Source: Clostridia bacterium (lineage in GTDB: Bacteria > Bacillota > Clostridia > UMGS1883). From it: a stretch of DNA of 64,000 bases. Below the pieces are notes generated by a model. The model saw nothing but the letters and a program-made list of their open reading frames with translations, had not been told where the DNA came from and did not search any database. The stretch is from the NCBI GenBank assembly GCA_045636425.1, contig JAZTXM010000003.1, positions 4,903-68,902 on the forward strand, written 5' to 3'. The translations under genes and the position numbers were made by a program. Shown piece by piece: positions 1,671 through 46,480 of this stretch. Every line of letters begins with the position of its first letter. Within the stretch, counting starts at the first letter, position 1.

Positions 1671-1902
1671 GGGATGTTAAAAATGCCCAGACCACAAAGG
1701 ACAGAATAAATTTGTGTTTACACTTTGAATAAAACGCTCAACAGCACTGTATTTCTCGTTTAGTGTAGAAATTCGCCGGACGAATTTCGGATTATATGTC
1801 CTTTGTTACGAACAAACTTCACCTCTCGCTGTATATCAATACAGCTTCGGGCAAGCCCCTCCGGGGTTCAGTTTGTCCGTTCTGAACATTTTTTCCTATC
1901 CC
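1671..1902 (+). repeat. structured interspersed element, copy 1 (unclassified family)
   Basis: Terminal arms GGGATGTTAAAAATGCCCAGACC / GTTCTGAACATTTTTTCCTATCCC. 10-bp inner helix 1694-1703/1798-1807. Conserved 3' three-way domain. Begins 3 nt after the argJ stop. Confidence 0.85.
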
Positions 1903-4986: not shown

Positions 4987-6039
4987 ATGAAAGCATATTT
5001 GACTTTGGAAAACGGAAAGGTTTTCTCGGGAGAAGCATTCGGTGCAATATGCGACGAGGTTGGAGAAATAGTATTTTCCACTTCTATGGGCAGTTACATT
5101 GAAGCACTTACAGACCCCTGCTATTACGGACAGATTCTTGTCCAGACATATCCGCTTATCGGTAACTACGGTATGATTTACTCCGATATGGAAAGCAGCA
5201 AGATTCACGCAAAGGGTTACATTGTGCGAGAAATTTGCGATACACCTTCAAACTTCCGCTCGGAGGGACTCTTGGAAGATTTCCTCAAAGAGCAGGGTGT
5301 TATGGGTATTTCGGGAATTGATACACGTGAAATCACAAAAATCATTCGCGAAGAAGGCACTATGACAGCACGCATCTCAACTAAAGAGCCTTCAGGCGAA
5401 AAGCCCCAGATGCCCGACATTAAAAACGCGGTTAAAGAAGTCAGTGCAAAGGAAAAACACACTGTAGGCGATGCAGATGTGAAAATTGCACTTCTCGACC
5501 TGGGAACAACTAAAAGTGCCGTTAAAACACTCGCAAATAAAGGTGCTATGGTAACAGTTCTTCCCTGTGACACAAAAGCGGACGAGTTTCTTTCCTACGA
5601 TGCGATTTATCTTTCCGATGGTCCGGGAAACCCCGAGGACTATAGTGAAATCGTAGAAGTAATAAAAGAAGTATTCGGCAAAAAGCCTATTTTTGCCACG
5701 GGACTTGGTCATCAGCTTCTTGCTATGGCAAACGGTGCAAAAATTCACAAGCTTCCTTATGGTCACCGCGGTGCAAATCAGCCTGTTAAGCAGCTTGAAA
5801 GCGGCAGAGTTTATATCACTGCACAAAACCACAGCTATGCAGTAGTTTCCGATACTCTCCCCTCTTACGCACAGGTAACTTATGAAAACCTTAACGACAA
5901 GAGCTGTGAGGGTATTGAGTACAAAGACAAAAATGCTGTTTCAATTCAATTCCGTCCCATAGAGGGAGACGGTCCTAACGAAACAGACTTCTTATACAGA
6001 AAATTCTTTGAAATGATTGGAGGAAGCAAGAATGCCTAA
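4987..6039 (+). CDS. carA: carbamoyl-phosphate synthase small-subunit homolog lacking the glutaminase catalytic triad
   Basis: 350 aa. The CarA N-domain (LTDPCYYGQILVQTYPLIGNYG) and GATase fold are retained. The nucleophile motif reads FATGLGHQ instead of FGICLGHQ, and HPE reads RPI. Overlaps carB by 8 nt. Confidence 0.85.
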   Translation: MKAYLTLENGKVFSGEAFGAICDEVGEIVFSTSMGSYIEALTDPCYYGQILVQTYPLIGNYGMIYSDMESSKIHAKGYIVREICDTPSNFRSEGLLEDFLKEQGVMGISGIDTREITKIIREEGTMTARISTKEPSGEKPQMPDIKNAVKEVSAKEKHTVGDADVKIALLDLGTTKSAVKTLANKGAMVTVLPCDTKADEFLSYDAIYLSDGPGNPEDYSEIVEVIKEVFGKKPIFATGLGHQLLAMANGAKIHKLPYGHRGANQPVKQLESGRVYITAQNHSYAVVSDTLPSYAQVTYENLNDKSCEGIEYKDKNAVSIQFRPIEGDGPNETDFLYRKFFEMIGGSKNA

Positions 6040-9000
6040 GAATAAAGACATCAAAAAGGTACTGGTAATCGGCTCGGGTCCTATTGTAATCGGGCAGGCT
6101 GCCGAATTTGACTATGCAGGTGCACAGGCTTGCCGAGTACTCCGCGATGAGGGCGTAAATATCGTCCTTGTAAACTCCAACCCCGCTACAATTATGACAG
6201 ATAAGGCTCTTGCAGATGAAATTTATCTTGAACCTCTTACAACAGATACAATCAAGAGAATCATTGAAAAGGAAAAGCCCGACAGTCTTCTTGCATCGCT
6301 TGGCGGACAGACAGGTCTTACCATTGCAATGCAGCTTGATAAGGAAGGCTATCTTGACAAAATGGGCGTTAAGCTTATCGGCACAAATGCCGAAGCTATC
6401 GACCGTGCAGAGGATAGAGAGCTTTTCAAGGAAACGATGCTCAAAATCGGGCAGGGTTGTATCCCCTCCGACATCGCTACAACAGTTGACGAATGTCTTA
6501 GCATTGCAGAAAAAATTGGCTACCCCGTAATTGTACGCCCTGCATTCACCCTTGGCGGTGCAGGTGGCGGCGTTGCGTATGACGCTGATACTCTTGCAAA
6601 GATTGCAAATAATGGTCTTACTCTTTCCCCCATTACTCAGGTGCTTATTGAAAAGTACATCTACGGATGGAAAGAAGTAGAATTTGAAGTTATGCGTGAC
6701 CACGCCGGTAACGCTATTACAATCTGTAGCATGGAAAATGTGGATCCCGTTGGCATCCACACCGGTGACAGTATAGTTGTTGCTCCCGCGGCAACTCTTT
6801 CCGATAAAGAATATTCAATGCTCAGAAAAGCGGCTCTTGATATTATCACAGAGCTTAAGATTGAGGGCGGATGTAACTGTCAGTTTGCACTTAATCCCGA
6901 CAGCTTTGAGTATGCGGTAATCGAGGTTAACCCCAGAGTTTCCCGTTCTTCCGCACTTGCAAGTAAGGCTACGGGTTACCCCATTGCAAAGGTTACCACA
7001 AAGATTGCCCTCGGCTATACGCTTGATGAAATCAAAAATGATGTTACTGGTGTAACATATGCTTGCTTTGAGCCTGCGGTTGACTACATGGTAGTTAAAT
7101 TCCCCAAATGGCCCTTTGACAAATTCGTATATGCCGACAGAAAGCTCGGCACACAGATGAAGGCTACGGGCGAGGTTATGTCTATCGGCAATTCCTTTGA
7201 ATCGGCACTTATGAAGGCGGTAAGAGGTGCAGAGCTTAAGACCGAAACTCTCCGCCATAAGGAAGTTCAAGCTATCGAGGATATTGAAAAGAAGCTTTAT
7301 GACCTTGACGACCTTAGAATTTTCACAGTTTATGAAGCTCTTGTAAGAGGAATTACTGTAGACAGAATCAACGAAATCACAAGAATTGATAAATGGTTCC
7401 TTTCCAAGATTAAAAATATTGTGGACTATGAAAAGAGCATTGTGGGCAATCTTACTCCCGAGCTTTACGAAAAAGGTAAGAAGCTTGGCTTTACCGATAA
7501 GATTCTGGAAGAAATCAGCGGTGAAAAAGTTCCCTGCCATAAAAATTGCGTTTACAAAATGGTTGATACCTGTGGCGGCGAATTTGCAGCTAAAACTCCC
7601 TACTTCTACTCCACTTATGACAATGAGTGCGAAGCAAGGGCCGTTGCTACAAACAACAAAAAGGTAATCGTTCTCGGCTCCGGTCCTATCAGAATCGGTC
7701 AGGGTATCGAATTTGACTACTCCTCCGTTCACTGTGTATGGGCACTTAAGGAAATGGGCTACGAGGTAATTATTATTAATAACAACCCCGAAACCGTTTC
7801 CACCGACTTTGATACAGCGGACAGGCTTTATTTTGAGCCTCTTACTCCCGAAGATGTAATGAACGTAATCGAGGTTGAAAAGCCCGAGGGCGTTGTGGTT
7901 GCATTCGGCGGTCAGACTGCAATCAAGCTGGTTAAATTCCTTGACGAAAGCGGAATTAAAATCTTAGGTACTTCTGCAAAGAGCATTGATATGGCAGAGG
8001 ATCGTGAGCAGTTTGATGCACTCCTTGAAAAGTTCAACATTAAGCGTCCCAGCGGTCTTACCGTTATGACACGCACTGAAGCACTCGAGGCGGCAGAAAA
8101 GCTTGGCTACCCCGTACTTCTGCGTCCCTCATACGTAATCGGCGGTCAGAATATGACGATTGCTTACAAGGAAGAAGACGTAGAACGCTATATGGATATC
8201 ATTCTTTCTCAGAAGATTGAAAACCCTGTACTTGTGGATAAGTATATGATGGGTAAGGAGCTTGAGGTTGACGTAATCAGCGACGGCAAAGACGTTCTTA
8301 TCCCCGGTATTATGGAGCACGTTGAACGTGCAGGTGTACACAGCGGTGACTCTATCGCAGTATATCCTCCCTTTAACGTGACGGATAAGATGCTTGATAA
8401 GATTGTTGACTGCTCAATAAAGCTTGCTCTTTCCCTTAAGACACAGGGACTTATAAATATTCAGTACCTTGTATATGAAAACGAACTGTATGTAATCGAG
8501 GTTAACCCCAGAGCATCAAGAACAGTTCCCTATATCAGTAAGGTAACGGGCATTCCTATGGTAGACCTTGCTACACAGGTTATGCAGGGTACTCCCCTTC
8601 TTGACCTTGGCTACGGCAGCGGTCTTTACAAGATGCCCCCCTACTATGCAGTTAAGGTTCCTGTGTTCTCATTTGAGAAGCTTTCGGGTATCAACTCTAT
8701 CTTAGGACCTGAAATGAAGTCCACAGGTGAAGTTTTGGGTATTGGTAAAACGCTTAACGAGGCACTTTACAAAGGTCTTGTTTCCGCAGGCTTCAATCTT
8801 GAAAGCCGTGGCGGAGTATATATCAGCGTTGACTCAAAGGATAAGTACGACCTTATTGAGCTTGCAAAGAAGCTTTACGATGCAGGTCTTGAAATCTACG
8901 CAGATGAAATGAATGCTCTCATTATAGATTCATTGGGTATCCCCGTGGAAACAGTTGAGGGAGAAAAGATTTATTCACTCCTTGAAAGCGAAAAGATTGG

Positions 9001-10036
9001 TTATATAATTCACACCAATTCAGGCAGACCTAAGGAAATTGAGAAGTTTATAAGACTGCACCGCAGAGCACTTCAGTTAAGCATTGCATGTCTTACATCG
9101 CTTGATACTGCAAATGCACTTGCAGATATTCTTCTCAGCCGATTCAATCAGTATAATACAGAGCTTACGGATATTGCTAAGCTCCGCACAGAAAAGCTGA
9201 ACATTCCCTTTATCAAAATGCAGGGAACCGGCGATGACTATATATTCATCAATAACTTTGATGGAAACATTGCATTCCCCGAAGCACTTGCAATTGTATT
9301 CTCCGACCGCCGCAGAGGTATCGGTGCAGACGGACTTGTTCTTATCGAAAAATCCGATGTGGCAGATGCGAAAATGCGTATATTCAACACTGACGGCAGT
9401 GAGGGCAAAATGGCAGGTAACGCTATCCGTTGCGTAGGTAAATACCTTTGGGATAACGGCTATGTAACACACCGCCATATAGCAATTGAAACTGCAAGCG
9501 GTATAAGAAAGCTTACGCTTCACCTCTTCGACCACAAGGTTACAAGCGTAACCGTCCAGATGGGACAGGCACAGTTTAATCCCGCTCAGATTCCCGTGGA
9601 TATGCCCGGAGATAAAGTAATTAACGAAAAGGTTACAATCGGCGGTAAGAAGTACGATATTACGTGCGTATCTATCGGAAATCCCCACTGTGTTGTTATC
9701 TGCGATAATGTATATAACATTGATGTGGAAACAATCGGTCCGAGGTTTGAAAATGCACCTATATTCCCCGAAAGAATCAATACGGAATTTGTTAAGATTA
9801 TCGACAAGCGTACCATCAGAATGAGAGTATGGGAACGCGGTAACGGTGAAACTCCCGCCTGCGGTACAGGTGCTTGTGCGGCGGCTATTGCGGCAGTTGA
9901 AAACGGCTACTGTGAGAAGGACACCGACATTTCCGTAAGAGTTGAGGGCGGAGAGCTTATCGTACGCTATACAGACGAGGGAGTATTCTTAACCGGTGAT
10001 GCGGAGAAGGTATTTGAGGGAATTTATCAGTATTAA
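6032..10036 (+). CDS. carB: carbamoyl-phosphate synthase large subunit fused in frame to a C-terminal DapF-like (diaminopimelate epimerase fold) domain
   Basis: Start ATG 6032 has GGAGG 9 nt upstream. About 1040 aa of CarB (two ATP-grasp halves plus an MGS-like domain), then a linker. From nt 9197 a DapF-like domain follows (KMQGTGDDYIFIN ... GNPHCVV ... ERGNGETPACGTGACAAA). No stop or SD lies between the two parts. Confidence 0.88.
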   Translation: MPKNKDIKKVLVIGSGPIVIGQAAEFDYAGAQACRVLRDEGVNIVLVNSNPATIMTDKALADEIYLEPLTTDTIKRIIEKEKPDSLLASLGGQTGLTIAMQLDKEGYLDKMGVKLIGTNAEAIDRAEDRELFKETMLKIGQGCIPSDIATTVDECLSIAEKIGYPVIVRPAFTLGGAGGGVAYDADTLAKIANNGLTLSPITQVLIEKYIYGWKEVEFEVMRDHAGNAITICSMENVDPVGIHTGDSIVVAPAATLSDKEYSMLRKAALDIITELKIEGGCNCQFALNPDSFEYAVIEVNPRVSRSSALASKATGYPIAKVTTKIALGYTLDEIKNDVTGVTYACFEPAVDYMVVKFPKWPFDKFVYADRKLGTQMKATGEVMSIGNSFESALMKAVRGAELKTETLRHKEVQAIEDIEKKLYDLDDLRIFTVYEALVRGITVDRINEITRIDKWFLSKIKNIVDYEKSIVGNLTPELYEKGKKLGFTDKILEEISGEKVPCHKNCVYKMVDTCGGEFAAKTPYFYSTYDNECEARAVATNNKKVIVLGSGPIRIGQGIEFDYSSVHCVWALKEMGYEVIIINNNPETVSTDFDTADRLYFEPLTPEDVMNVIEVEKPEGVVVAFGGQTAIKLVKFLDESGIKILGTSAKSIDMAEDREQFDALLEKFNIKRPSGLTVMTRTEALEAAEKLGYPVLLRPSYVIGGQNMTIAYKEEDVERYMDIILSQKIENPVLVDKYMMGKELEVDVISDGKDVLIPGIMEHVERAGVHSGDSIAVYPPFNVTDKMLDKIVDCSIKLALSLKTQGLINIQYLVYENELYVIEVNPRASRTVPYISKVTGIPMVDLATQVMQGTPLLDLGYGSGLYKMPPYYAVKVPVFSFEKLSGINSILGPEMKSTGEVLGIGKTLNEALYKGLVSAGFNLESRGGVYISVDSKDKYDLIELAKKLYDAGLEIYADEMNALIIDSLGIPVETVEGEKIYSLLESEKIGYIIHTNSGRPKEIEKFIRLHRRALQLSIACLTSLDTANALADILLSRFNQYNTELTDIAKLRTEKLNIPFIKMQGTGDDYIFINNFDGNIAFPEALAIVFSDRRRGIGADGLVLIEKSDVADAKMRIFNTDGSEGKMAGNAIRCVGKYLWDNGYVTHRHIAIETASGIRKLTLHLFDHKVTSVTVQMGQAQFNPAQIPVDMPGDKVINEKVTIGGKKYDITCVSIGNPHCVVICDNVYNIDVETIGPRFENAPIFPERINTEFVKIIDKRTIRMRVWERGNGETPACGTGACAAAIAAVENGYCEKDTDISVRVEGGELIVRYTDEGVFLTGDAEKVFEGIYQY

Positions 10037-10040
10037 AAGC

Positions 10041-10268
10041 GGGATGTTAAAAATGCCCAGACCATTCGTTGGCGATTGATTATATTTTGAAAGAGCGTAT
10101 TTCTTTTAAAGATATGCTTATCGGTTGAAATCCGTACAACGGATTTCTGTTTTAGATGCCAACGAATTACGAACAAACTTCACCTCTCGCTGTATACACA
10201 TACAGCTTCGGGTAACCTGCGGCAAGCCGCAGTTCAGTTTGTCCGTTCTGAACATTTTTTCCTATCCC
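10041..10268 (+). repeat. structured interspersed element, copy 2
   Basis: Same arms and 3' domain as copy 1, but a different cassette. Inner helix 10064-10073/10158-10167. Begins 4 nt after the carB stop. Confidence 0.85.
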
Positions 10269-10295
10269 TTTGACGCCTAATTATTAGTTTGAAAA

Positions 10296-10381
10296 TGAAT
10301 ATTGGTGCATAAAATATAAATTTATGCACCAATATTCAAAATTTATGAATTTTTATGCAAAAACGCTTGCATAATTATACA
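10296..10381 (+). promoter_or_regulatory. candidate ArgR operator region (ARG-box-like sites)
   Basis: Two boxes, TGAATTTTTATGCA (10346-10359) and TGCATAATTATACA (10368-10381), are 22 bp apart centre to centre. An 18-bp perfect inverted repeat TGAATATTGGTGCATAAA / TTTATGCACCAATATTCA lies at 10296-10313/10321-10338. Confidence 0.45.
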
Positions 10382-11659: not shown

Positions 11660-11900
11660 GGACGTATTAAAATAGCACTGAACGCATAAAGCATGAAGGC
11701 TCATATCATGGCAATTAGAAAGCGTAGATATTTGAGTTTAATCCCGTTTGTCGGGAAAAAATTCGCTCCACGAATTTTATTGACTTATCTGCTTTATGCT
11801 ACGAACAAACTTCACCTCTCGCTGTATACACATACAGCTTCGGGTAACCCACGGCAAGCCGTGGTTCAGTTTGTCCGTTCCGCACTATTTTACTACATCC
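11660..11900 (+). repeat. structured interspersed element, copy 3 (diverged arms)
   Basis: Arms GGACGTATTAAAATAGCACTGAAC / GTTCCGCACTATTTTACTACATCC still pair. Inner helix 11684-11693/11790-11799. The 3' domain is conserved. Begins 1 nt after the argG stop. Confidence 0.8.
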
Positions 11901-11904
11901 TCAC

Positions 11905-11951
11905 AAAAAAGTATGAAACTGTAGTAAAGAAATTTACTACAGTTTCATACT
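11905..11951 (-). terminator. 19-bp perfect hairpin; intrinsic-terminator-like only when read on the minus strand
   Basis: AGTATGAAACTGTAGTAAA-GAAA-TTTACTACAGTTTCATACT (11910-11951). An A-run lies at 11905-11910 on the + strand, which is a U-run after the stem on the - strand. No T-run follows on the + strand. Confidence 0.4.
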
Positions 11952-11974
11952 TAACAGACAATGGAGGTAAAAAT

Positions 11975-35707: not shown

Positions 35708-36658
35708 CTAAAAAAAGATTCCGCTTCCGTCAAAATCTGGAATAAAGCTTTCTAAGGAGGCTTCTCCTTCTTGAATATACGCGTCTTCAATACCCAAGTT
35801 TATGCAAAAATCTATTATATTATCATATTCTTTATCAGACAGTTTTCTCTCTAAATTGTCAAACCCGCATTTTGTCACGGGAGTATACTGACTCATTATG
35901 CTAAGCACTATGTTGTCTTTATATTTTTCAAACACTTGTCTTATAACCTTTTTTGAATCCTCCGTATGCCCAGGCAGACACAAGTGCCTCACAATAACTC
36001 CTCTTTGTATAATGCCGCTTTCATCAAAAACCACTTCGGGCTTATACTGCACCATTTTTCCCAAGGCTTTCCACGCAACAACCGGATAATCCTCCGCCAA
36101 AGAGTAGAGCTTTGAAAGCCTACCATCCTCATATTTAAAATCCACTAAATACACATCTATTACATCCTTTAAAATCTCAAGTGTATTAAGCGATACATAT
36201 CCGCTGCTGTTCAGGATAACAGGAATCTTAAGCCCCCTTTTTTTCGCTTCTGTTATTGTATATTTAACGGTAGGTGCGTAATGCTCGGCAGTAACCAAAT
36301 TGATATTATGTGCTCCTTCGCCCTGTAACCTAAGGAATATTTTCACAAGCTGCTGCTCATCGACTATAGTGCCTTTGTTACCGCGGCTCAACCCATAATT
36401 TTGGCAATAACAGCACCTTAGAGTGCACCCTGAAAAGAAAACCGTTCCCGAACCGTTTGTTCCCGATATGCACGGTTCCTCCCAAAAATGCAAGGCTGCT
36501 CTGCCAATCTTAGGCATTGCGGTTTCTTTGCAAAAGCCTGTTTCCTTATATCTGTTTACTTTGCATTTTCTTGGACACAACTGACATTTCTCATATAATG
36601 AGTTCAGCACAAAACCACCTGCATTTTCATTAAAACAAAAGGGGATGTAAAAAATCAT
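35708..36658 (-). CDS. radical SAM protein (PflX-like activase family)
   Basis: CTLRCCYCQN is a CxxxCxxC motif. The start is uncertain: ATG 36658 lies inside a terminator-like hairpin, and GTG 36610 (VLNSLYEKCQLCPRKC) is the alternative. Confidence 0.75.
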   Translation of the reverse strand: MIFYIPFCFNENAGGFVLNSLYEKCQLCPRKCKVNRYKETGFCKETAMPKIGRAALHFWEEPCISGTNGSGTVFFSGCTLRCCYCQNYGLSRGNKGTIVDEQQLVKIFLRLQGEGAHNINLVTAEHYAPTVKYTITEAKKRGLKIPVILNSSGYVSLNTLEILKDVIDVYLVDFKYEDGRLSKLYSLAEDYPVVAWKALGKMVQYKPEVVFDESGIIQRGVIVRHLCLPGHTEDSKKVIRQVFEKYKDNIVLSIMSQYTPVTKCGFDNLERKLSDKEYDNIIDFCINLGIEDAYIQEGEASLESFIPDFDGSGIFF

Positions 36659-36669
36659 TTTTTACCCCC
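36641..36669. terminator. bidirectional terminator-like hairpin whose arms match the termini of the interspersed element
   Basis: GGGGATGTAAAAAATCATTTTTTACCCCC, flanked by AAAA and TTTTT. The first 14 nt are identical to the left end of element copy 4. Confidence 0.55.
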
Positions 36670-36686
36670 TTTTTCTATCATAGCCA

Positions 36687-37400
36687 TTAATAAATTCTTT
36701 CTGCACCTTTCAAAACACTATTAGGTCTTGAGAGGAGCTGTTTAAGTTCAGCATCACTGAGTTTCCTTTGAAGTATATTTACTGCTTGCGAATAGTCTGG
36801 TGCTCTGTCACTCAAATTATGACAGTCCGACCCTATGGCAAAAACCGCCCCTGATTTGATGAGCTTCACAGCTCTGCGCCTTGTTTTGAAATCATTTATA
36901 TACTTGCAGTTCATTTGCAAAAGCGAACCTATTTCTACCAATTCATATAACTTCTCCCGATTGCCTTTGTATTTCATATATCTTTCAAAATGAGCAATAA
37001 CAGGTGTTAAACCCTTTCCGATAATTCTCTCCACGCCTCTGACCATGTTTTCTGTCCACGGAGCAAAGGGCATTTCTACCAAAATATATTCCGTTCCCTT
37101 TATGCAAAATTCCTTAAGCTGCTCTATTCTCCACAGTTCTTCAAAATAGAGCACTTCACATCCCAAATATAATTCTATATCAACGGGATTTTTTTTAAGC
37201 TCAAGTAAAAGCTCTTGCAGTGAGTCTTCCCGCCTTTCGGCAAAAGTCTCCACAGAAGATGCATATGCGTAAAAATGAGGAGTAAGCAATACCTTTTCTA
37301 CGCCTTGATTTTTCAGTTCTTTCAAAAGAGCTACAGACATTTCCAAGCTGGTGCTTCCGTCATCAACTTCCGGTAAAATATGAGTATGAAAATCAATCAT
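36687..37400 (-). CDS. cpsB: PHP-family protein-tyrosine phosphatase (CpsB/YwqE type)
   Basis: The MIDFHTHILPEVDDGS N-terminus is diagnostic of CpsB. Confidence 0.85.
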   Translation of the reverse strand: MIDFHTHILPEVDDGSTSLEMSVALLKELKNQGVEKVLLTPHFYAYASSVETFAERREDSLQELLLELKKNPVDIELYLGCEVLYFEELWRIEQLKEFCIKGTEYILVEMPFAPWTENMVRGVERIIGKGLTPVIAHFERYMKYKGNREKLYELVEIGSLLQMNCKYINDFKTRRRAVKLIKSGAVFAIGSDCHNLSDRAPDYSQAVNILQRKLSDAELKQLLSRPNSVLKGAERIY

Positions 37401-40784: not shown

Positions 40785-40853
40785 TTTCTACACCTCTATA
40801 TGTATATTTTTAATTATAAATTCAACACCTATTATTTACTGCTTATTATGTAT

Positions 40854-41033
40854 CCCCGCAGTGCCGTTTATTTCGGACTATTCTAAACCTGCCAAAGCAG
40901 GTGGGTGACTCGCTCACCGCTCCTGGGTTTCCCTCTGGCATAGCAAGGGCTTACACGCCACGGCAAGACATTCGGTCTCCCTATATAGATGTGTTGGTTA
41001 AAATAAATCCGTAATTGCGCACACCGCAGGGGG
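40854..41033 (-). ncRNA. candidate structured 5' leader / cis-regulatory RNA of the SLH gene (class unknown)
   Basis: On the minus strand the closing helix is CCCC..GCGGUG / CACUGC-GGGG. A second long-range helix GGAUUUAUUUUAACC / GGUUUAGAAUAGUCC and internal hairpins follow. It lies between a promoter and the SD. Confidence 0.4.
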
Positions 41034-41048
41034 ATTGCTCATGTTTTA

Positions 41049-41825: not shown

Positions 41826-41868
41826 AAAAAGGGCGGTGTAAAAAAACCGAGTTTTTTTACACCGCCTC
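41826..41868 (-). terminator. rho-independent terminator
   Basis: GGGCGGTGTAAAAAAA-ccgag-TTTTTTTACACCGCC, with a U-run on the minus strand. Confidence 0.8.
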
Positions 41869-41873
41869 TCACG

Positions 41874-42482
41874 TTATGCCATTTTTTCTATTTTTGTTAT
41901 AGACAATTCGTACGCCGTTCTGATTTCTGTTTCTTCTTCGGAAATTTTCTTGCTGTAATTTCTCGATTGCAGTCTGCCCCAAAGCATAACATTGCTTCCT
42001 ACTTCAAGGTTTTCGGAGAACACGGCATTTTTGCCCCATGCAATGGCAGGAATATAATCGGAACGATTAAAGGCACGATTTACAGCCACTATCAAATCGG
42101 TGATTTCTCTGCCGAAAGGAGTTCGCCTGTAAATAGGTGCTTTACATATAAACCCGTTTATAAAAATCTCGTTTGGATTTTCATTATCCTCCGATATTGC
42201 AGGGGCAATTCCCTTGGCAAAAACCGTCAGTATTAAACGCGTCTTCGTTCCCGTATACTTGTTATAGCTTCTAAGCTGTCCTTTTACTTTTACCTTATTT
42301 CCGTTTTTTATCAGAACAGGATCCATTTGTCTTGCAGCTACAGTCACCGGCAGTAAATCGTCATTTTCCGAGAGTCTGGGTACTCTTAATGTGAAAGAGT
42401 AAAAATCCTCCCCCAAAACGCTGTGACTGTAAATCGGCTCTGTTTCTACGGTTCCTGTTAATGTTATTACGTTATTTTCCAA
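41874..42482 (-). CDS. tandem OB-fold, SSB-like protein
   Basis: Two internally similar halves (ITLTGTVETEPIY... and IFINGFICKAPIY...). TTG start 9 nt after AAGGAG. The functional assignment is tentative. Confidence 0.5.
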   Translation of the reverse strand: MENNVITLTGTVETEPIYSHSVLGEDFYSFTLRVPRLSENDDLLPVTVAARQMDPVLIKNGNKVKVKGQLRSYNKYTGTKTRLILTVFAKGIAPAISEDNENPNEIFINGFICKAPIYRRTPFGREITDLIVAVNRAFNRSDYIPAIAWGKNAVFSENLEVGSNVMLWGRLQSRNYSKKISEEETEIRTAYELSITKIEKMA

Positions 42483-45061: not shown

Positions 45062-46177
45062 GTGAAAAAGTCTAATATTTTTTCCGATAAAATTGATATA
45101 GTTTTACTGGTGAGTGTGATTCTCGCTTCCGTTTTCGGTATTCTGATTATTAACAGTGCCACATATGCTCTTGATACACATTTGAAATATGTGGCGGTGC
45201 AAAGCATCGCCCTCATTCTGGGAATCGGTGCAATGACGCTTACCATATTTTTTAGTTACAAATATATAGAAAAGCTACGCTATCTTATTTTTCTATTGGG
45301 AATAGGGATGCTGATTTTAGTTCTTGCAATGGGTAAGCTTTCCAACGGAACGCAGGGCTGGCTGGTATTGGGGCCTGTAACGCTTCAGCCCTCGGAAATT
45401 GCCAAGGTGTGCTTTATTATAACCTTTTCAACCCACCTTGCAAAAAAGCATGAATCGGTTAACAAGCGAAAAACGCTTTTGGGACTGCTTTTACATTTGC
45501 TCTGCTATATGATTCCCGTACTGCTTCAGCCCGACTTTGGTACGGCAACGGTTTTTGCGGTAATATTTGCATTTGAGCTGTTTTTTGCAGGCATATATAA
45601 AAAATATATTGCAGGGGTATTTGCGTTAGGTGCTTTAGCTTCCCCCGTGATATGGTTTTTCCTGAAGGATTATCAAAGAAGCAGAATTATAACTCTGTTC
45701 TTCCCCGAAAGCGACCCTTTGGGCGGAGGCTACCATGTGCTGCAATCGAAGCTTGCCATAGGAAGCGGTATGATTACAGGCAGGGGCTATCTCCAGGGAC
45801 CGCAGACACAGTCGGGATTTCTTCCCGAAAAGCAAACCGACTTTGCTTTTTCCGTTTTGGGAGAGGAATTGGGGCTTATAGGTGCAATTTTCATCACTGC
45901 ATTACTGCTGATTATAGTTTACCGCTGTTTTGACAACGCTAAAAGCTGTTCCCACGACCCCTTCGGTGAATTCATTTGTATCGGCGTCGGCTCGATGATG
46001 TTTTTCCACATAGTGGAAAACATCGGAATGTGCCTTGGTATTCTTCCTATCACGGGAATTCCGCTTCCCTTTATAAGCTACGGCGGAAGTAATCTTGTGA
46101 CCTGCTTTATCGCTATCGGACTTGTTCAGAATGTACGTATGCGAAGGCGGGCAACTAAATTTGATTTTATGGAATAG
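45062..46177 (+). CDS. FtsW/RodA/SpoVE-family peptidoglycan glycosyltransferase
   Basis: GTG start. Polytopic SEDS protein with QPSEIAK and LPEKQTDFAFS motifs. Confidence 0.88.
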   Translation: MKKSNIFSDKIDIVLLVSVILASVFGILIINSATYALDTHLKYVAVQSIALILGIGAMTLTIFFSYKYIEKLRYLIFLLGIGMLILVLAMGKLSNGTQGWLVLGPVTLQPSEIAKVCFIITFSTHLAKKHESVNKRKTLLGLLLHLLCYMIPVLLQPDFGTATVFAVIFAFELFFAGIYKKYIAGVFALGALASPVIWFFLKDYQRSRIITLFFPESDPLGGGYHVLQSKLAIGSGMITGRGYLQGPQTQSGFLPEKQTDFAFSVLGEELGLIGAIFITALLLIIVYRCFDNAKSCSHDPFGEFICIGVGSMMFFHIVENIGMCLGILPITGIPLPFISYGGSNLVTCFIAIGLVQNVRMRRRATKFDFME

Positions 46178-46185
46178 ACGTAAAA

Positions 46186-46438
46186 GGGGATGTAAAAAAA
46201 GTCCAGACCACAAAAAGGCGATAATAATACGGATTATAGGCAGTTGGTGCTTGCCAAAACATGTTAATTTGGTTAAAAATCTCATTTTATTCGATTTTTT
46301 CTTTTTTTGAAGCCTTTTTGTTACGAACAAACTTCGCCACTCGACGTACCCACGTACGCCTTCGGGTAACCTAACAATGCCCAAGCGTGGGCATTGTTAG
46401 CTCAGTTTGTCCGTTCTGAAGCATTTTTTCCTATCCCC
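46186..46438 (+). repeat. structured interspersed element, copy 4
   Basis: Arms GGGGATGTAAAAAAAGTCCAGACC / GTTCTGAAGCATTTTTTCCTATCCCC. Inner helix 46210-46219/46312-46321. Both 3'-domain hairpins are compensated. Begins 8 nt after the SEDS gene stop. Confidence 0.85.
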
Positions 46439-46440
46439 TT

Positions 46441-46480
46441 AAAAGAGGGTGAAAAAATCGTTGATTTTTTCACCCTCTTG
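46441..46480. terminator. bidirectional terminator (SEDS gene / ABC operon)
   Basis: AAAAGAGGGTGAAAAAATC-gtt-GATTTTTTCACCCTCTT. Confidence 0.85.

Follow-up and report, generated by a model that had tools for sequence, protein, structure and literature searches.

A family of structured, approximately 240-nt non-coding repeats between stop codons and terminator-like hairpins in gut Clostridia

REP/BIME sequences are palindromic units found at the 3' ends of genes, where they serve as landing sites for mobile DNA such as IS1397 and IS621. REP units function as terminators or as mRNA stabilisers (PMC3184786). SPRITE, BOX and RUP in Streptococcus pneumoniae, Correia/NEMIS in Neisseria and ERIC in enterobacteria are small repeats with a structure of their own; they lie in intergenic DNA that is transcribed, and for some of them a role at the RNA level has been suggested, SPRITE being terminator-like (PMC3184786). 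The repeat bcr1 of the Bacillus cereus group is ~155 bp long, has 5-bp direct repeats on either side and is transcribed; its location is not conserved between related strains, and compensatory changes keep its multi-stem fold (PMC3184786). These structured intergenic repeats are the closest known kind to the sequences described here, which are a real, strongly supported and previously undescribed family of ~240-nt non-coding repeats in gut Clostridia. Common to both are small size, multi-copy dispersal and transcription, the last being deduced for the new family from the placement of terminators. The new family is set apart by the lack of target duplication, a branched core, a strict rule of position relative to stop codons and terminators, and the coexistence of a short hairpin form.

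Like bcr1, the element is an interspersed non-coding repeat of Firmicutes whose fold is maintained by compensatory changes, but judged by the description of bcr1 it differs in its length of ~240 nt, in the absence of a duplication, in a three-way junction with invariant bases and in its strict stop/terminator position. To our knowledge, none of SPRITE, BOX, RUP, Correia and ERIC has been reported 0-8 nt past stop codons in sense orientation or with a long form and a short hairpin form built on one stem, and we are not aware of any among them with a branched core that stays conserved at 56% identity. REP sequences are simple hairpins of 20-40 nt with RAYT partners, whereas the element is a large fold that adjoins hairpins similar to its own stem, and no RAYT was seen. 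Two further systems invite comparison by their placement. Integron attC sites lie directly after ORFs and in ORF orientation, conserve structure over sequence, contain fixed mismatches and insert without duplication. The element resembles them in all of these respects, but has no R'/R'' core sites, integrase or cassette array, is 2-4 times longer and is branched. We rejected an attC assignment: such a site needs RYYYAAC ... GTTRRRY, a length of 57-141 nt and an IntI-associated array, whereas the element has different ends and measures 215-275 nt, and the genes flanking the copies in our window belong to core metabolism, with the arg gene order being the same in relatives that lack the element. 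Group IIC introns use intrinsic-terminator hairpins as landmarks and insert in sense orientation. They differ in that they insert after the hairpin, span at least 600 nt, contain ribozyme domains and usually encode a reverse transcriptase, and the element gave no match to an intron model.

The window, that is, the whole stretch of 64,000 nucleotides that was analysed from the Clostridia bacterium contig JAZTXM010000003.1, contains four copies on the + strand at 1671-1902, 10041-10268, 11660-11900 and 46186-46438, where the initial annotation had placed them. A covariance model returned them as 1670-1904, 10040-10270, 11660-11901 and 46186-46438, with E values of 1e-34 to 1e-40, and found no further full copy in the window. 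The four sequences align end to end at a mutual identity of only ~70%. Two conserved 15-16-mers have four exact occurrences, and a search allowing up to three mismatches gave 7 matches compared to ~1.1-1.4 expected; the four-copy pattern is not due to chance. Fold energies of the window copies lie 4.6 to 6.2 standard deviations below those of shuffled sequence (z -4.6 to -6.2). Copy 1 is located between the argJ stop codon (1665-1667) and argB (1957), copy 2 begins 4 nt past the stop of a carB-dapF fusion ORF and lies upstream of the predicted argG operator/promoter, copy 3 begins 1 nt past the argG stop, and copy 4 begins 8 nt past the stop of rodA/ftsW (46175-46177) and precedes a terminator that also serves the convergent ABC-transporter gene. 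The genes upstream of the copies are thus argJ, the carB-dapF fusion, argG and rodA.

One architecture is common to all four copies: a closing stem P1, a P2-P3 arm and a three-way junction formed by P4, P5 and P6. Along the element, the ends form P1, followed by the 10-bp P2, a variable region that closes with P3, and finally P4 around the hairpins P5 and P6. In copy 1, the 5' strand of P1 (GGGATGTTAAAAATGCCCAGACC, 1671-1693) is partnered with the 3' strand at 1879-1902 (GTTCTGAACATTTTTTCCTATCCC), and the 5' strand of P2 at 1694-1703 with 1797-1806. The P3 hairpin GAAATTCG-CCGGA-CGAATTTC occupies 1768-1788 and the three-way junction 1808-1880, in which P4 (1808-1818 / 1870-1880) contains a conserved A.C inside and encloses P5 (1828-1834 / 1839-1845) and P6 (1856-1859 / 1863-1866), all on the + strand. 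The parts that had been described from sequence inspection were recovered, namely terminal inverted arms that are diverged in copy 3 yet still pair, the 10-bp inner helix (P2), the core hairpin GAAATTCG/CGAATTTC with its variants, the closing helix ACGAACAAACT/AGTTTGTCCGT (P4) and the two junction hairpins that differ between copies. The pairing of the proposed helices was seen, but it is less regular than had been claimed: the P1 arms are imperfect because ATGT stands opposite CCTAT, and ACGAACAAACT/AGTTTGTCCGT and GACGTAC/GTACGCC each contain a conserved A.C mismatch. Comparison of the open frames across copies revealed none in common, as had been stated. In copies 2 and 3, P6 and the TTCAGTTTGT next to it (10217-10232 and 11849-11864, +) score as a weak intrinsic-terminator-like site, which may matter when P4 is unformed.

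The arg region contains further features beside the copies. The carB ORF (6017-10036, +) runs without a stop into two diaminopimelate-epimerase domains to give a product of 1339 aa, and the fusion is not an assembly artefact because relatives encode the same fusion of 1334 aa. A palindrome ATGAATATTGGTGCATAAA..TTTATGCACCAATATTCA followed by TTATGAATTTTTATGCAAAAAC is located upstream of argG at approximately 10296-10345 and recurs in all relatives (L198-L205); it is probably an arginine-repressor operator with a promoter, and copy 2 sits between the carB stop codon and this predicted site. A second, unrelated family of repeats composed of TTCGAAATGCGAAATG / CATTTCGAATTTCGAA motifs fills the same intergenic slots in relatives (L117:2260-2500; the argJ-argB and argG-argH spacers of L198-L200; L205; and the flanks of L001, L034, L065 and L098). 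In the window these motifs have a single match with one mismatch, in a gene region at 231-243, which equals chance expectation. A 6S/SsrS RNA gene at 40849-41035 (-) scored 89 bits over the full-length model and was the sole Rfam match in the window at the gathering threshold.

The pattern AACAAACTTC-N40-70-CAGTTTGTYCGT, scanned over one genome per species, gave at least 126 matches in at least 116 loci. Nearly all of the matches listed come from metagenome-assembled Clostridia (Acutalibacteraceae, Oscillospiraceae and relatives) sampled from the guts of ruminants and other animals. From the matches listed we extracted 93 distinct full-length copies of 215-275 nt, and the 77 representatives among them that share less than 85% identity are 56% identical on average. 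We built a covariance model from an alignment of the listed copies, and its search across 765 kb returned 121 copies, of which only four are those in the window. The family corresponds to no named one: no Rfam family reached its gathering threshold, copies 1 and 4 gave no match at E values up to 10, and their best scores were 13-22 bits compared to family thresholds of 39-100. Copy 4 had no BLAST match among plasmids and phages, IMG/VR gave one match, and a full-text literature search with conserved 12-13-mers retrieved only unrelated primer sequences, which leaves the initial view of an unnamed family standing. ARAGORN found no tRNA or tmRNA in the window, and a tRNA-like element was rejected since the program recognised no cloverleaf. 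We found no conserved small ORF in the element. Exact-product look-ups for the window ArgJ and ArgB found none, and 80 metagenome argG loci, mostly too distant, contained no copy. Many metagenome contigs end within a copy (L004, L008, L011, L033, L047, L061, L063, L073, L083, L099 and L101), and therefore the repeat breaks metagenome assemblies. L117, the closest argG relative, terminates exactly at the expected start of copy 3.

Across the 121 aligned copies, standard pairs occupy 90.7% of cells compared to 76.9% after shuffling, a value that 0 of 500 shuffles reached, and 54 of the 63 pairs show changes on both sides; the alignment behind these counts was made with the model and is biased in favour of its structure. 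When partners were slid by 1-3 columns, only 28-47% remained paired. Every one of the 10 pairs of P2 is altered on both sides somewhere in the family, and an ungapped anchored analysis found 2-4 types of Watson-Crick pair at each position from the first to the ninth; P6 stems, 4-13 bp long, exist in 44 different versions. In the junction and internal loops, CCTCTCG and CTTCGGGTAAC are more than 90% conserved (in copy 1 the conserved junction nucleotides read CCTCTCG and CTTCGGG), and while conservation of the two pattern halves was imposed by the search, that of the nucleotides between them was not. The P1 arms of 23-26 nt pair in nearly all copies around a conserved unpaired core of ATGT opposite CCTAT, and the element starts with GGGGATG... 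and ends with ...CTATCCCC. The interior is more conserved than the arms, and it covaries. The proposal that selection acts on a folded RNA or ssDNA is therefore supported, and covariation became stronger with 121 copies than it had been with four rather than being lost in the wider search. A MITE-like nature of the element does not refute selection on the fold, because the internal fold is conserved beyond the ends.

Variants point to the parts that matter most. Two copies have a short hairpin instead of the P2-P3 arm, one copy (L032:6865-7267) carries a 190-nt expansion in the apex of P5, and a minimal tandem unit of 121 nt (L103:5133-5344) consists of P1 and the junction only, with P4 covaried and its A.C mismatch kept. 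Since P2-P3 is dispensable and P5 expandable in these variants, the core is P1 together with the three-way junction. At least three full copies with a common 11-nt spacer, TTGAGAATGAC, form an array at L003:7663-8000.

The minus strand gives a fold that is better by ~11 kcal/mol in 89 of 93 copies, because P4, P5 and mid-P1 contain conserved A.C mismatches that read as G.U on the minus strand. Other conserved G.U sites belong to the + strand, in outer P1 and lower P5, where one column contains A-U, G.U and G-C. Wobbles on the + strand total 250 G.U and 212 A.C, plus ~119 A.C of P4 that lie outside the model, and sporadic wobbles in the variable helices are balanced as well. We dropped an antisense RNA as a candidate, given that the wobbles are balanced and that the terminator directly downstream of the element conflicts with it; a minus-strand RNA would have to start just downstream of a terminator, which makes it unlikely. 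The wobble counts do not decide between RNA and DNA, nor between the strands. Near-pure Watson-Crick helices with fixed mismatches fit recognition of a folded single strand, either DNA or tightly constrained RNA, equally with a function as RNA.

The position of the element is strict with regard to genes, all family-wide position counts being taken among the matches listed. In 73 of 92 copies, an ORF of at least 100 codons on the same strand ends between -20 and +30 nt from the 5' end of the element, compared to 4 of 94 copies in the mirror control, in which a convergent ORF abuts the 3' end. The stop codon is typically separated from the first G of the element by 0-8 nt, the distance from stop codon to P2 peaks at 25-33 nt, and in seven cases the stop codon is a TAA within the arm of the element itself. 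Left flanks of the copies have only A/T richness in common. Copies occur on both strands within 8 kb in L040 and also in L088, and most of them lie next to an ORF on their own strand; orientation therefore tracks the gene and not replication. In L027, the evidence for gene-following orientation is weak. On the other side of the element, a hairpin whose stem measures 8 bp or more starts within 35 nt past the 3' end, mostly at 1-11 nt, in 68 of 100 copies, compared to 13 of 98 copies by the same test upstream. A T-tail follows this downstream hairpin in 42 cases and an A-lead precedes it in 24, and approximately one third of the copies, including copies 1 and 2, have no downstream hairpin. Because the element lies between a stop codon and an intrinsic terminator, the + strand should be transcribed, and going by terminator placement the element would be expected to form a 3'UTR tail of the upstream mRNA. 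Of 77 downstream ORFs, 47 are convergent, and the fixed neighbour of the element is the upstream stop codon rather than a downstream gene. On these grounds we rejected a riboswitch or leader, which would be placed ahead of the gene under its control.

Hairpins that resemble the element's own closing stem recur next to it. The 5'-arm motif GNTGT(N0-2)AAA is present on the same strand 10-14 nt past the 3' end in 33 of 101 copies and upstream in 1 of 101, against a background of 0.014 per 50 nt, and mostly constitutes the ascending half of the next terminator. The A-tract upstream of this motif repeats the flank of the 5' arm (AAAAGGGG[A/C]TGTAAAAAAA), which creates a direct repeat around the body and linker. 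Of 62 TGTAAAA-type hairpins in the 880 kb around copies, 49 adjoin a copy and 10 stand alone. The similarity between an arm and its own downstream hairpin is weakly locus-specific (p 0.01-0.04), and second copies or 5' fragments of copies often lie 2-14 nt downstream of a copy. In the window, the terminator hairpin after copy 4 (46442-46479) starts 3 nt downstream, and its 5' half AAAAGAGGGTGAAAAAATC repeats the 5' arm of that copy, AAAAGGGGATGTAAAAAAAG. A perfect 20-bp hairpin at 11909-11952, 8 nt downstream of copy 3, has a 5' half (AAGTATGAAACTGTAG) loosely like the copy's own diverged 5' arm; its T-run is found on the minus-strand side only, and it would stop antisense entry into the element, not read-through from argG to argH. 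Two solo hairpins follow genes on the minus strand. The P1-like hairpin AAGGGGATGTAAAAAA-TCA-TTTTTTACCCCCTT at 36639-36670 (GGGGATGTAAAAAA..) lies just past the stop of ORF 36687-37400; the hairpin's 5' half and the opening 16 nt of the copy 4 arm are the same sequence. The P1-like terminator GGCGGTGTAAAAAAA..TTTTTTTACACCGCC at 41831-41868 lies 7 nt past the stop of ORF 41874-42482 and is an unoccupied site of the type that the element adjoins elsewhere. When the model was run with filters off to score stand-alone hairpins in the window, 36639-36670, 41831-41868 and the copy 4 terminator scored as P1-only forms. The two solo hairpins may represent a short form of the element, what is left of it, or its targets.

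Comparison with relatives revealed that the element is mobile, being present or absent among close relatives without target duplication. In relatives with 94-100% identical ArgB the arg gene order is kept and copies 1-3 are absent, and the covariance model found no copies over 230 kb of relatives' loci, most of which cover the arg region. L208 provides a clean empty site for copy 1 and the only clean one obtained. Where the window reads TGATAC-GGGATGTT...CCTATCCC-TAAACTAC, L208 reads TGATAC-GGTCCC-TAAACTAC, with flanks that are otherwise colinear. No duplication is present there, and the GG and TCCC that are left correspond to the outermost two and four bases of the arms, such that GGTCCC is either the footprint of an excision or a target whose bases match those of the arms. 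L117 and L198-L200 lack copy 2, and at the same site L204 and L201 carry 17-nt hairpins, GGATGACAATGTCATCC and GGTTGGCAACGCCAACC. Copy 3 has an orthologous copy in L013 and is absent from L198-L206 and L212. At the site of copy 4, the relative L214 (RodA 80% identical) has the hairpin AAAAGGGATGTAAAA-CGGTA-TTTTTACATCTCTTTT. Besides copy 3/L013, L019/L072 and L088/L093 are pairs of orthologous copies, the last at pgk-tpiA, and they establish that some insertions are old; we saw no near-identical pair of copies that would show a recent jump. The pattern of presence and absence could in part result from loss or allele replacement. In the target-site duplication test, 89 of 99 copies had no direct repeat at their ends, and a palindromic target beyond the G/C ends is in slight excess only (1.02 vs 0.75 pairs). 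Neither a partner enzyme nor a longer autonomous copy was found in the 880 kb around the copies listed, and no arm pair in the same 880 kb encloses more than ~400 nt. Apparently solo 3' domains were rejected as autonomous or ORF-linked forms, as each proved to be a tandem unit, a contig end or a full copy whose arms have diverged. A classical MITE was likewise rejected: inverted repeats are present, but the duplication expected of one was lacking in those 89 copies and at the empty site of copy 1. As for a PATE derived from IS200/IS605, the absence of duplication fits but the inverted termini do not, and we rejected this candidate because orientation is not linked to replication and the left end is not preceded by a conserved target of 4-5 nt.

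Our favoured explanation, which could as easily prove wrong as right, is that of a non-autonomous mobile element that is transcribed as a 3'UTR, lands at the 5' foot of terminator-like hairpins and has its fold under selection; we conclude that the fold is needed for the element's propagation, its function, or both. An enzyme encoded elsewhere would move the element in trans, would recognise the folded single strand by its core of P1 and three-way junction, and would deliver it to the 5' foot of terminator-type hairpins like its own closing stem (AAAAGGGGNTGTAAAAAAA). Such target hairpins would begin a few bases past stop codons, so insertion 5' of a hairpin on a given strand would yield both the stop-proximal position and the sense orientation. 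Delivery 5' of stem-like hairpins would also explain why arm repeats and tandem units occur and why few hairpins are unoccupied. We regard as unlikely a bolder reading in which a protein-less element inserts by a new mechanism, as a folded strand without duplication at the foot of a terminator that its stem mimics, possibly with the help of a host recombinase, and in which competition between P1 and the terminator couples the termination of translation and transcription. A host-serving 3'UTR or intercistronic module, whose fold would block 3'-to-5' decay or provide a processing site in the manner of REP/BIME and ERIC and whose mobility would merely explain its distribution, is a tentative alternative that we think possible but not probable: the sense orientation between stop codon and terminator, the strong covariation, the conserved junction nucleotides and the orthologous copies kept across species (copy 3/L013, L019/L072 and L088/L093) all speak for it, but close relatives have the same genes without the element, G.U and A.C intermediates are equally frequent, unlike in typical RNA helices, and it is the antisense strand that folds better.

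Absence of target duplication is expected of a folded ssDNA recombination site, comparable to integron attC, IMEX or the CTX-phage attP, whose helices and fixed mismatches would single out one DNA strand for a tyrosine or HUH recombinase, with Campbell-like integration at the arm. This reading, which we consider improbable, gains from helices that are nearly all Watson-Crick with two balanced types of wobble, from mismatches at conserved fixed positions, from the arm direct repeats that flank body and linker in one third of copies, and from the tandem units and 5' fragments downstream. The unpaired cores ATGTAAA and TTCCTA may resemble the XerD and XerC half-sites of a Bacillus-type dif, but the junction spacing of ~15 nt is unfit for a Xer site, some copies, such as copy 1, have no flanking arm repeat, and no recombinase gene is linked. 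The downstream arm motifs could alternatively indicate a conditional terminator that senses translation or a ligand, in which the 3' strand of P1 pairs with either the 5' arm or the arm-like half of the terminator; a ribosome halted 0-8 nt upstream would open P1, making read-through likelier, or the junction would bind a factor. In at least 33 of 101 copies, the ascending half of the terminator is a 5'-arm copy placed at fixed spacing, the 5' arm lies inside the ribosome footprint of the stop codon, and the conserved junction looks like an aptamer core. We nonetheless find such a switch quite unlikely, given that the motif is absent from two thirds of copies, that no riboswitch family matches and that the convergent orientation of most downstream genes (47/77) leaves nothing there to regulate; the downstream arm moreover copies TGT, which is unpaired with the 3' arm and hence points to a common origin and not to selected pairing. 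Small size, lack of coding capacity, multiple copies, patchy presence and inverted arms of 23-26 nt would suit an ordinary terminal-inverted-repeat MITE that is cut and pasted by a DDE transposase and whose internal structure is incidental. That account is very unlikely in the light of 89/99 copies without target-site duplication, ends that differ in their conserved core (ATGT vs CCTAT), an interior that is better conserved than the arms and covaries, the strict rule of position and orientation, and the failure to see an IS with these ends in the 880 kb around copies. We give next to no credence to a guide RNA gene (omega RNA, bridge RNA or seekRNA) on a non-autonomous derivative of IS200/IS605 or IS110. 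A multi-helix RNA of ~200 nt, the lack of target duplication and insertion near palindromes, which is typical of IS110, would fit, but no TnpB, IscB or IS110 gene lies beside any of 143 copies, Rfam gave no match, orientation follows genes within single 8-kb loci instead of replication, and neither a flanking target nor a core dinucleotide is conserved.

Structured intergenic repeats are known from a few cultured model bacteria, and their spread and purpose are largely open. The family described here is abundant in uncultured rumen and gut Clostridia and follows unusually clean placement rules. In practical terms, besides breaking metagenome assemblies, it inflates intergenic distances in operons such as arg. 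For those working on bacterial repeats, 3'UTRs and mobile DNA, the placement rules make it possible to test how a non-coding element finds the ends of genes and whether bacteria gain ready-made 3'UTR structures via transposition.
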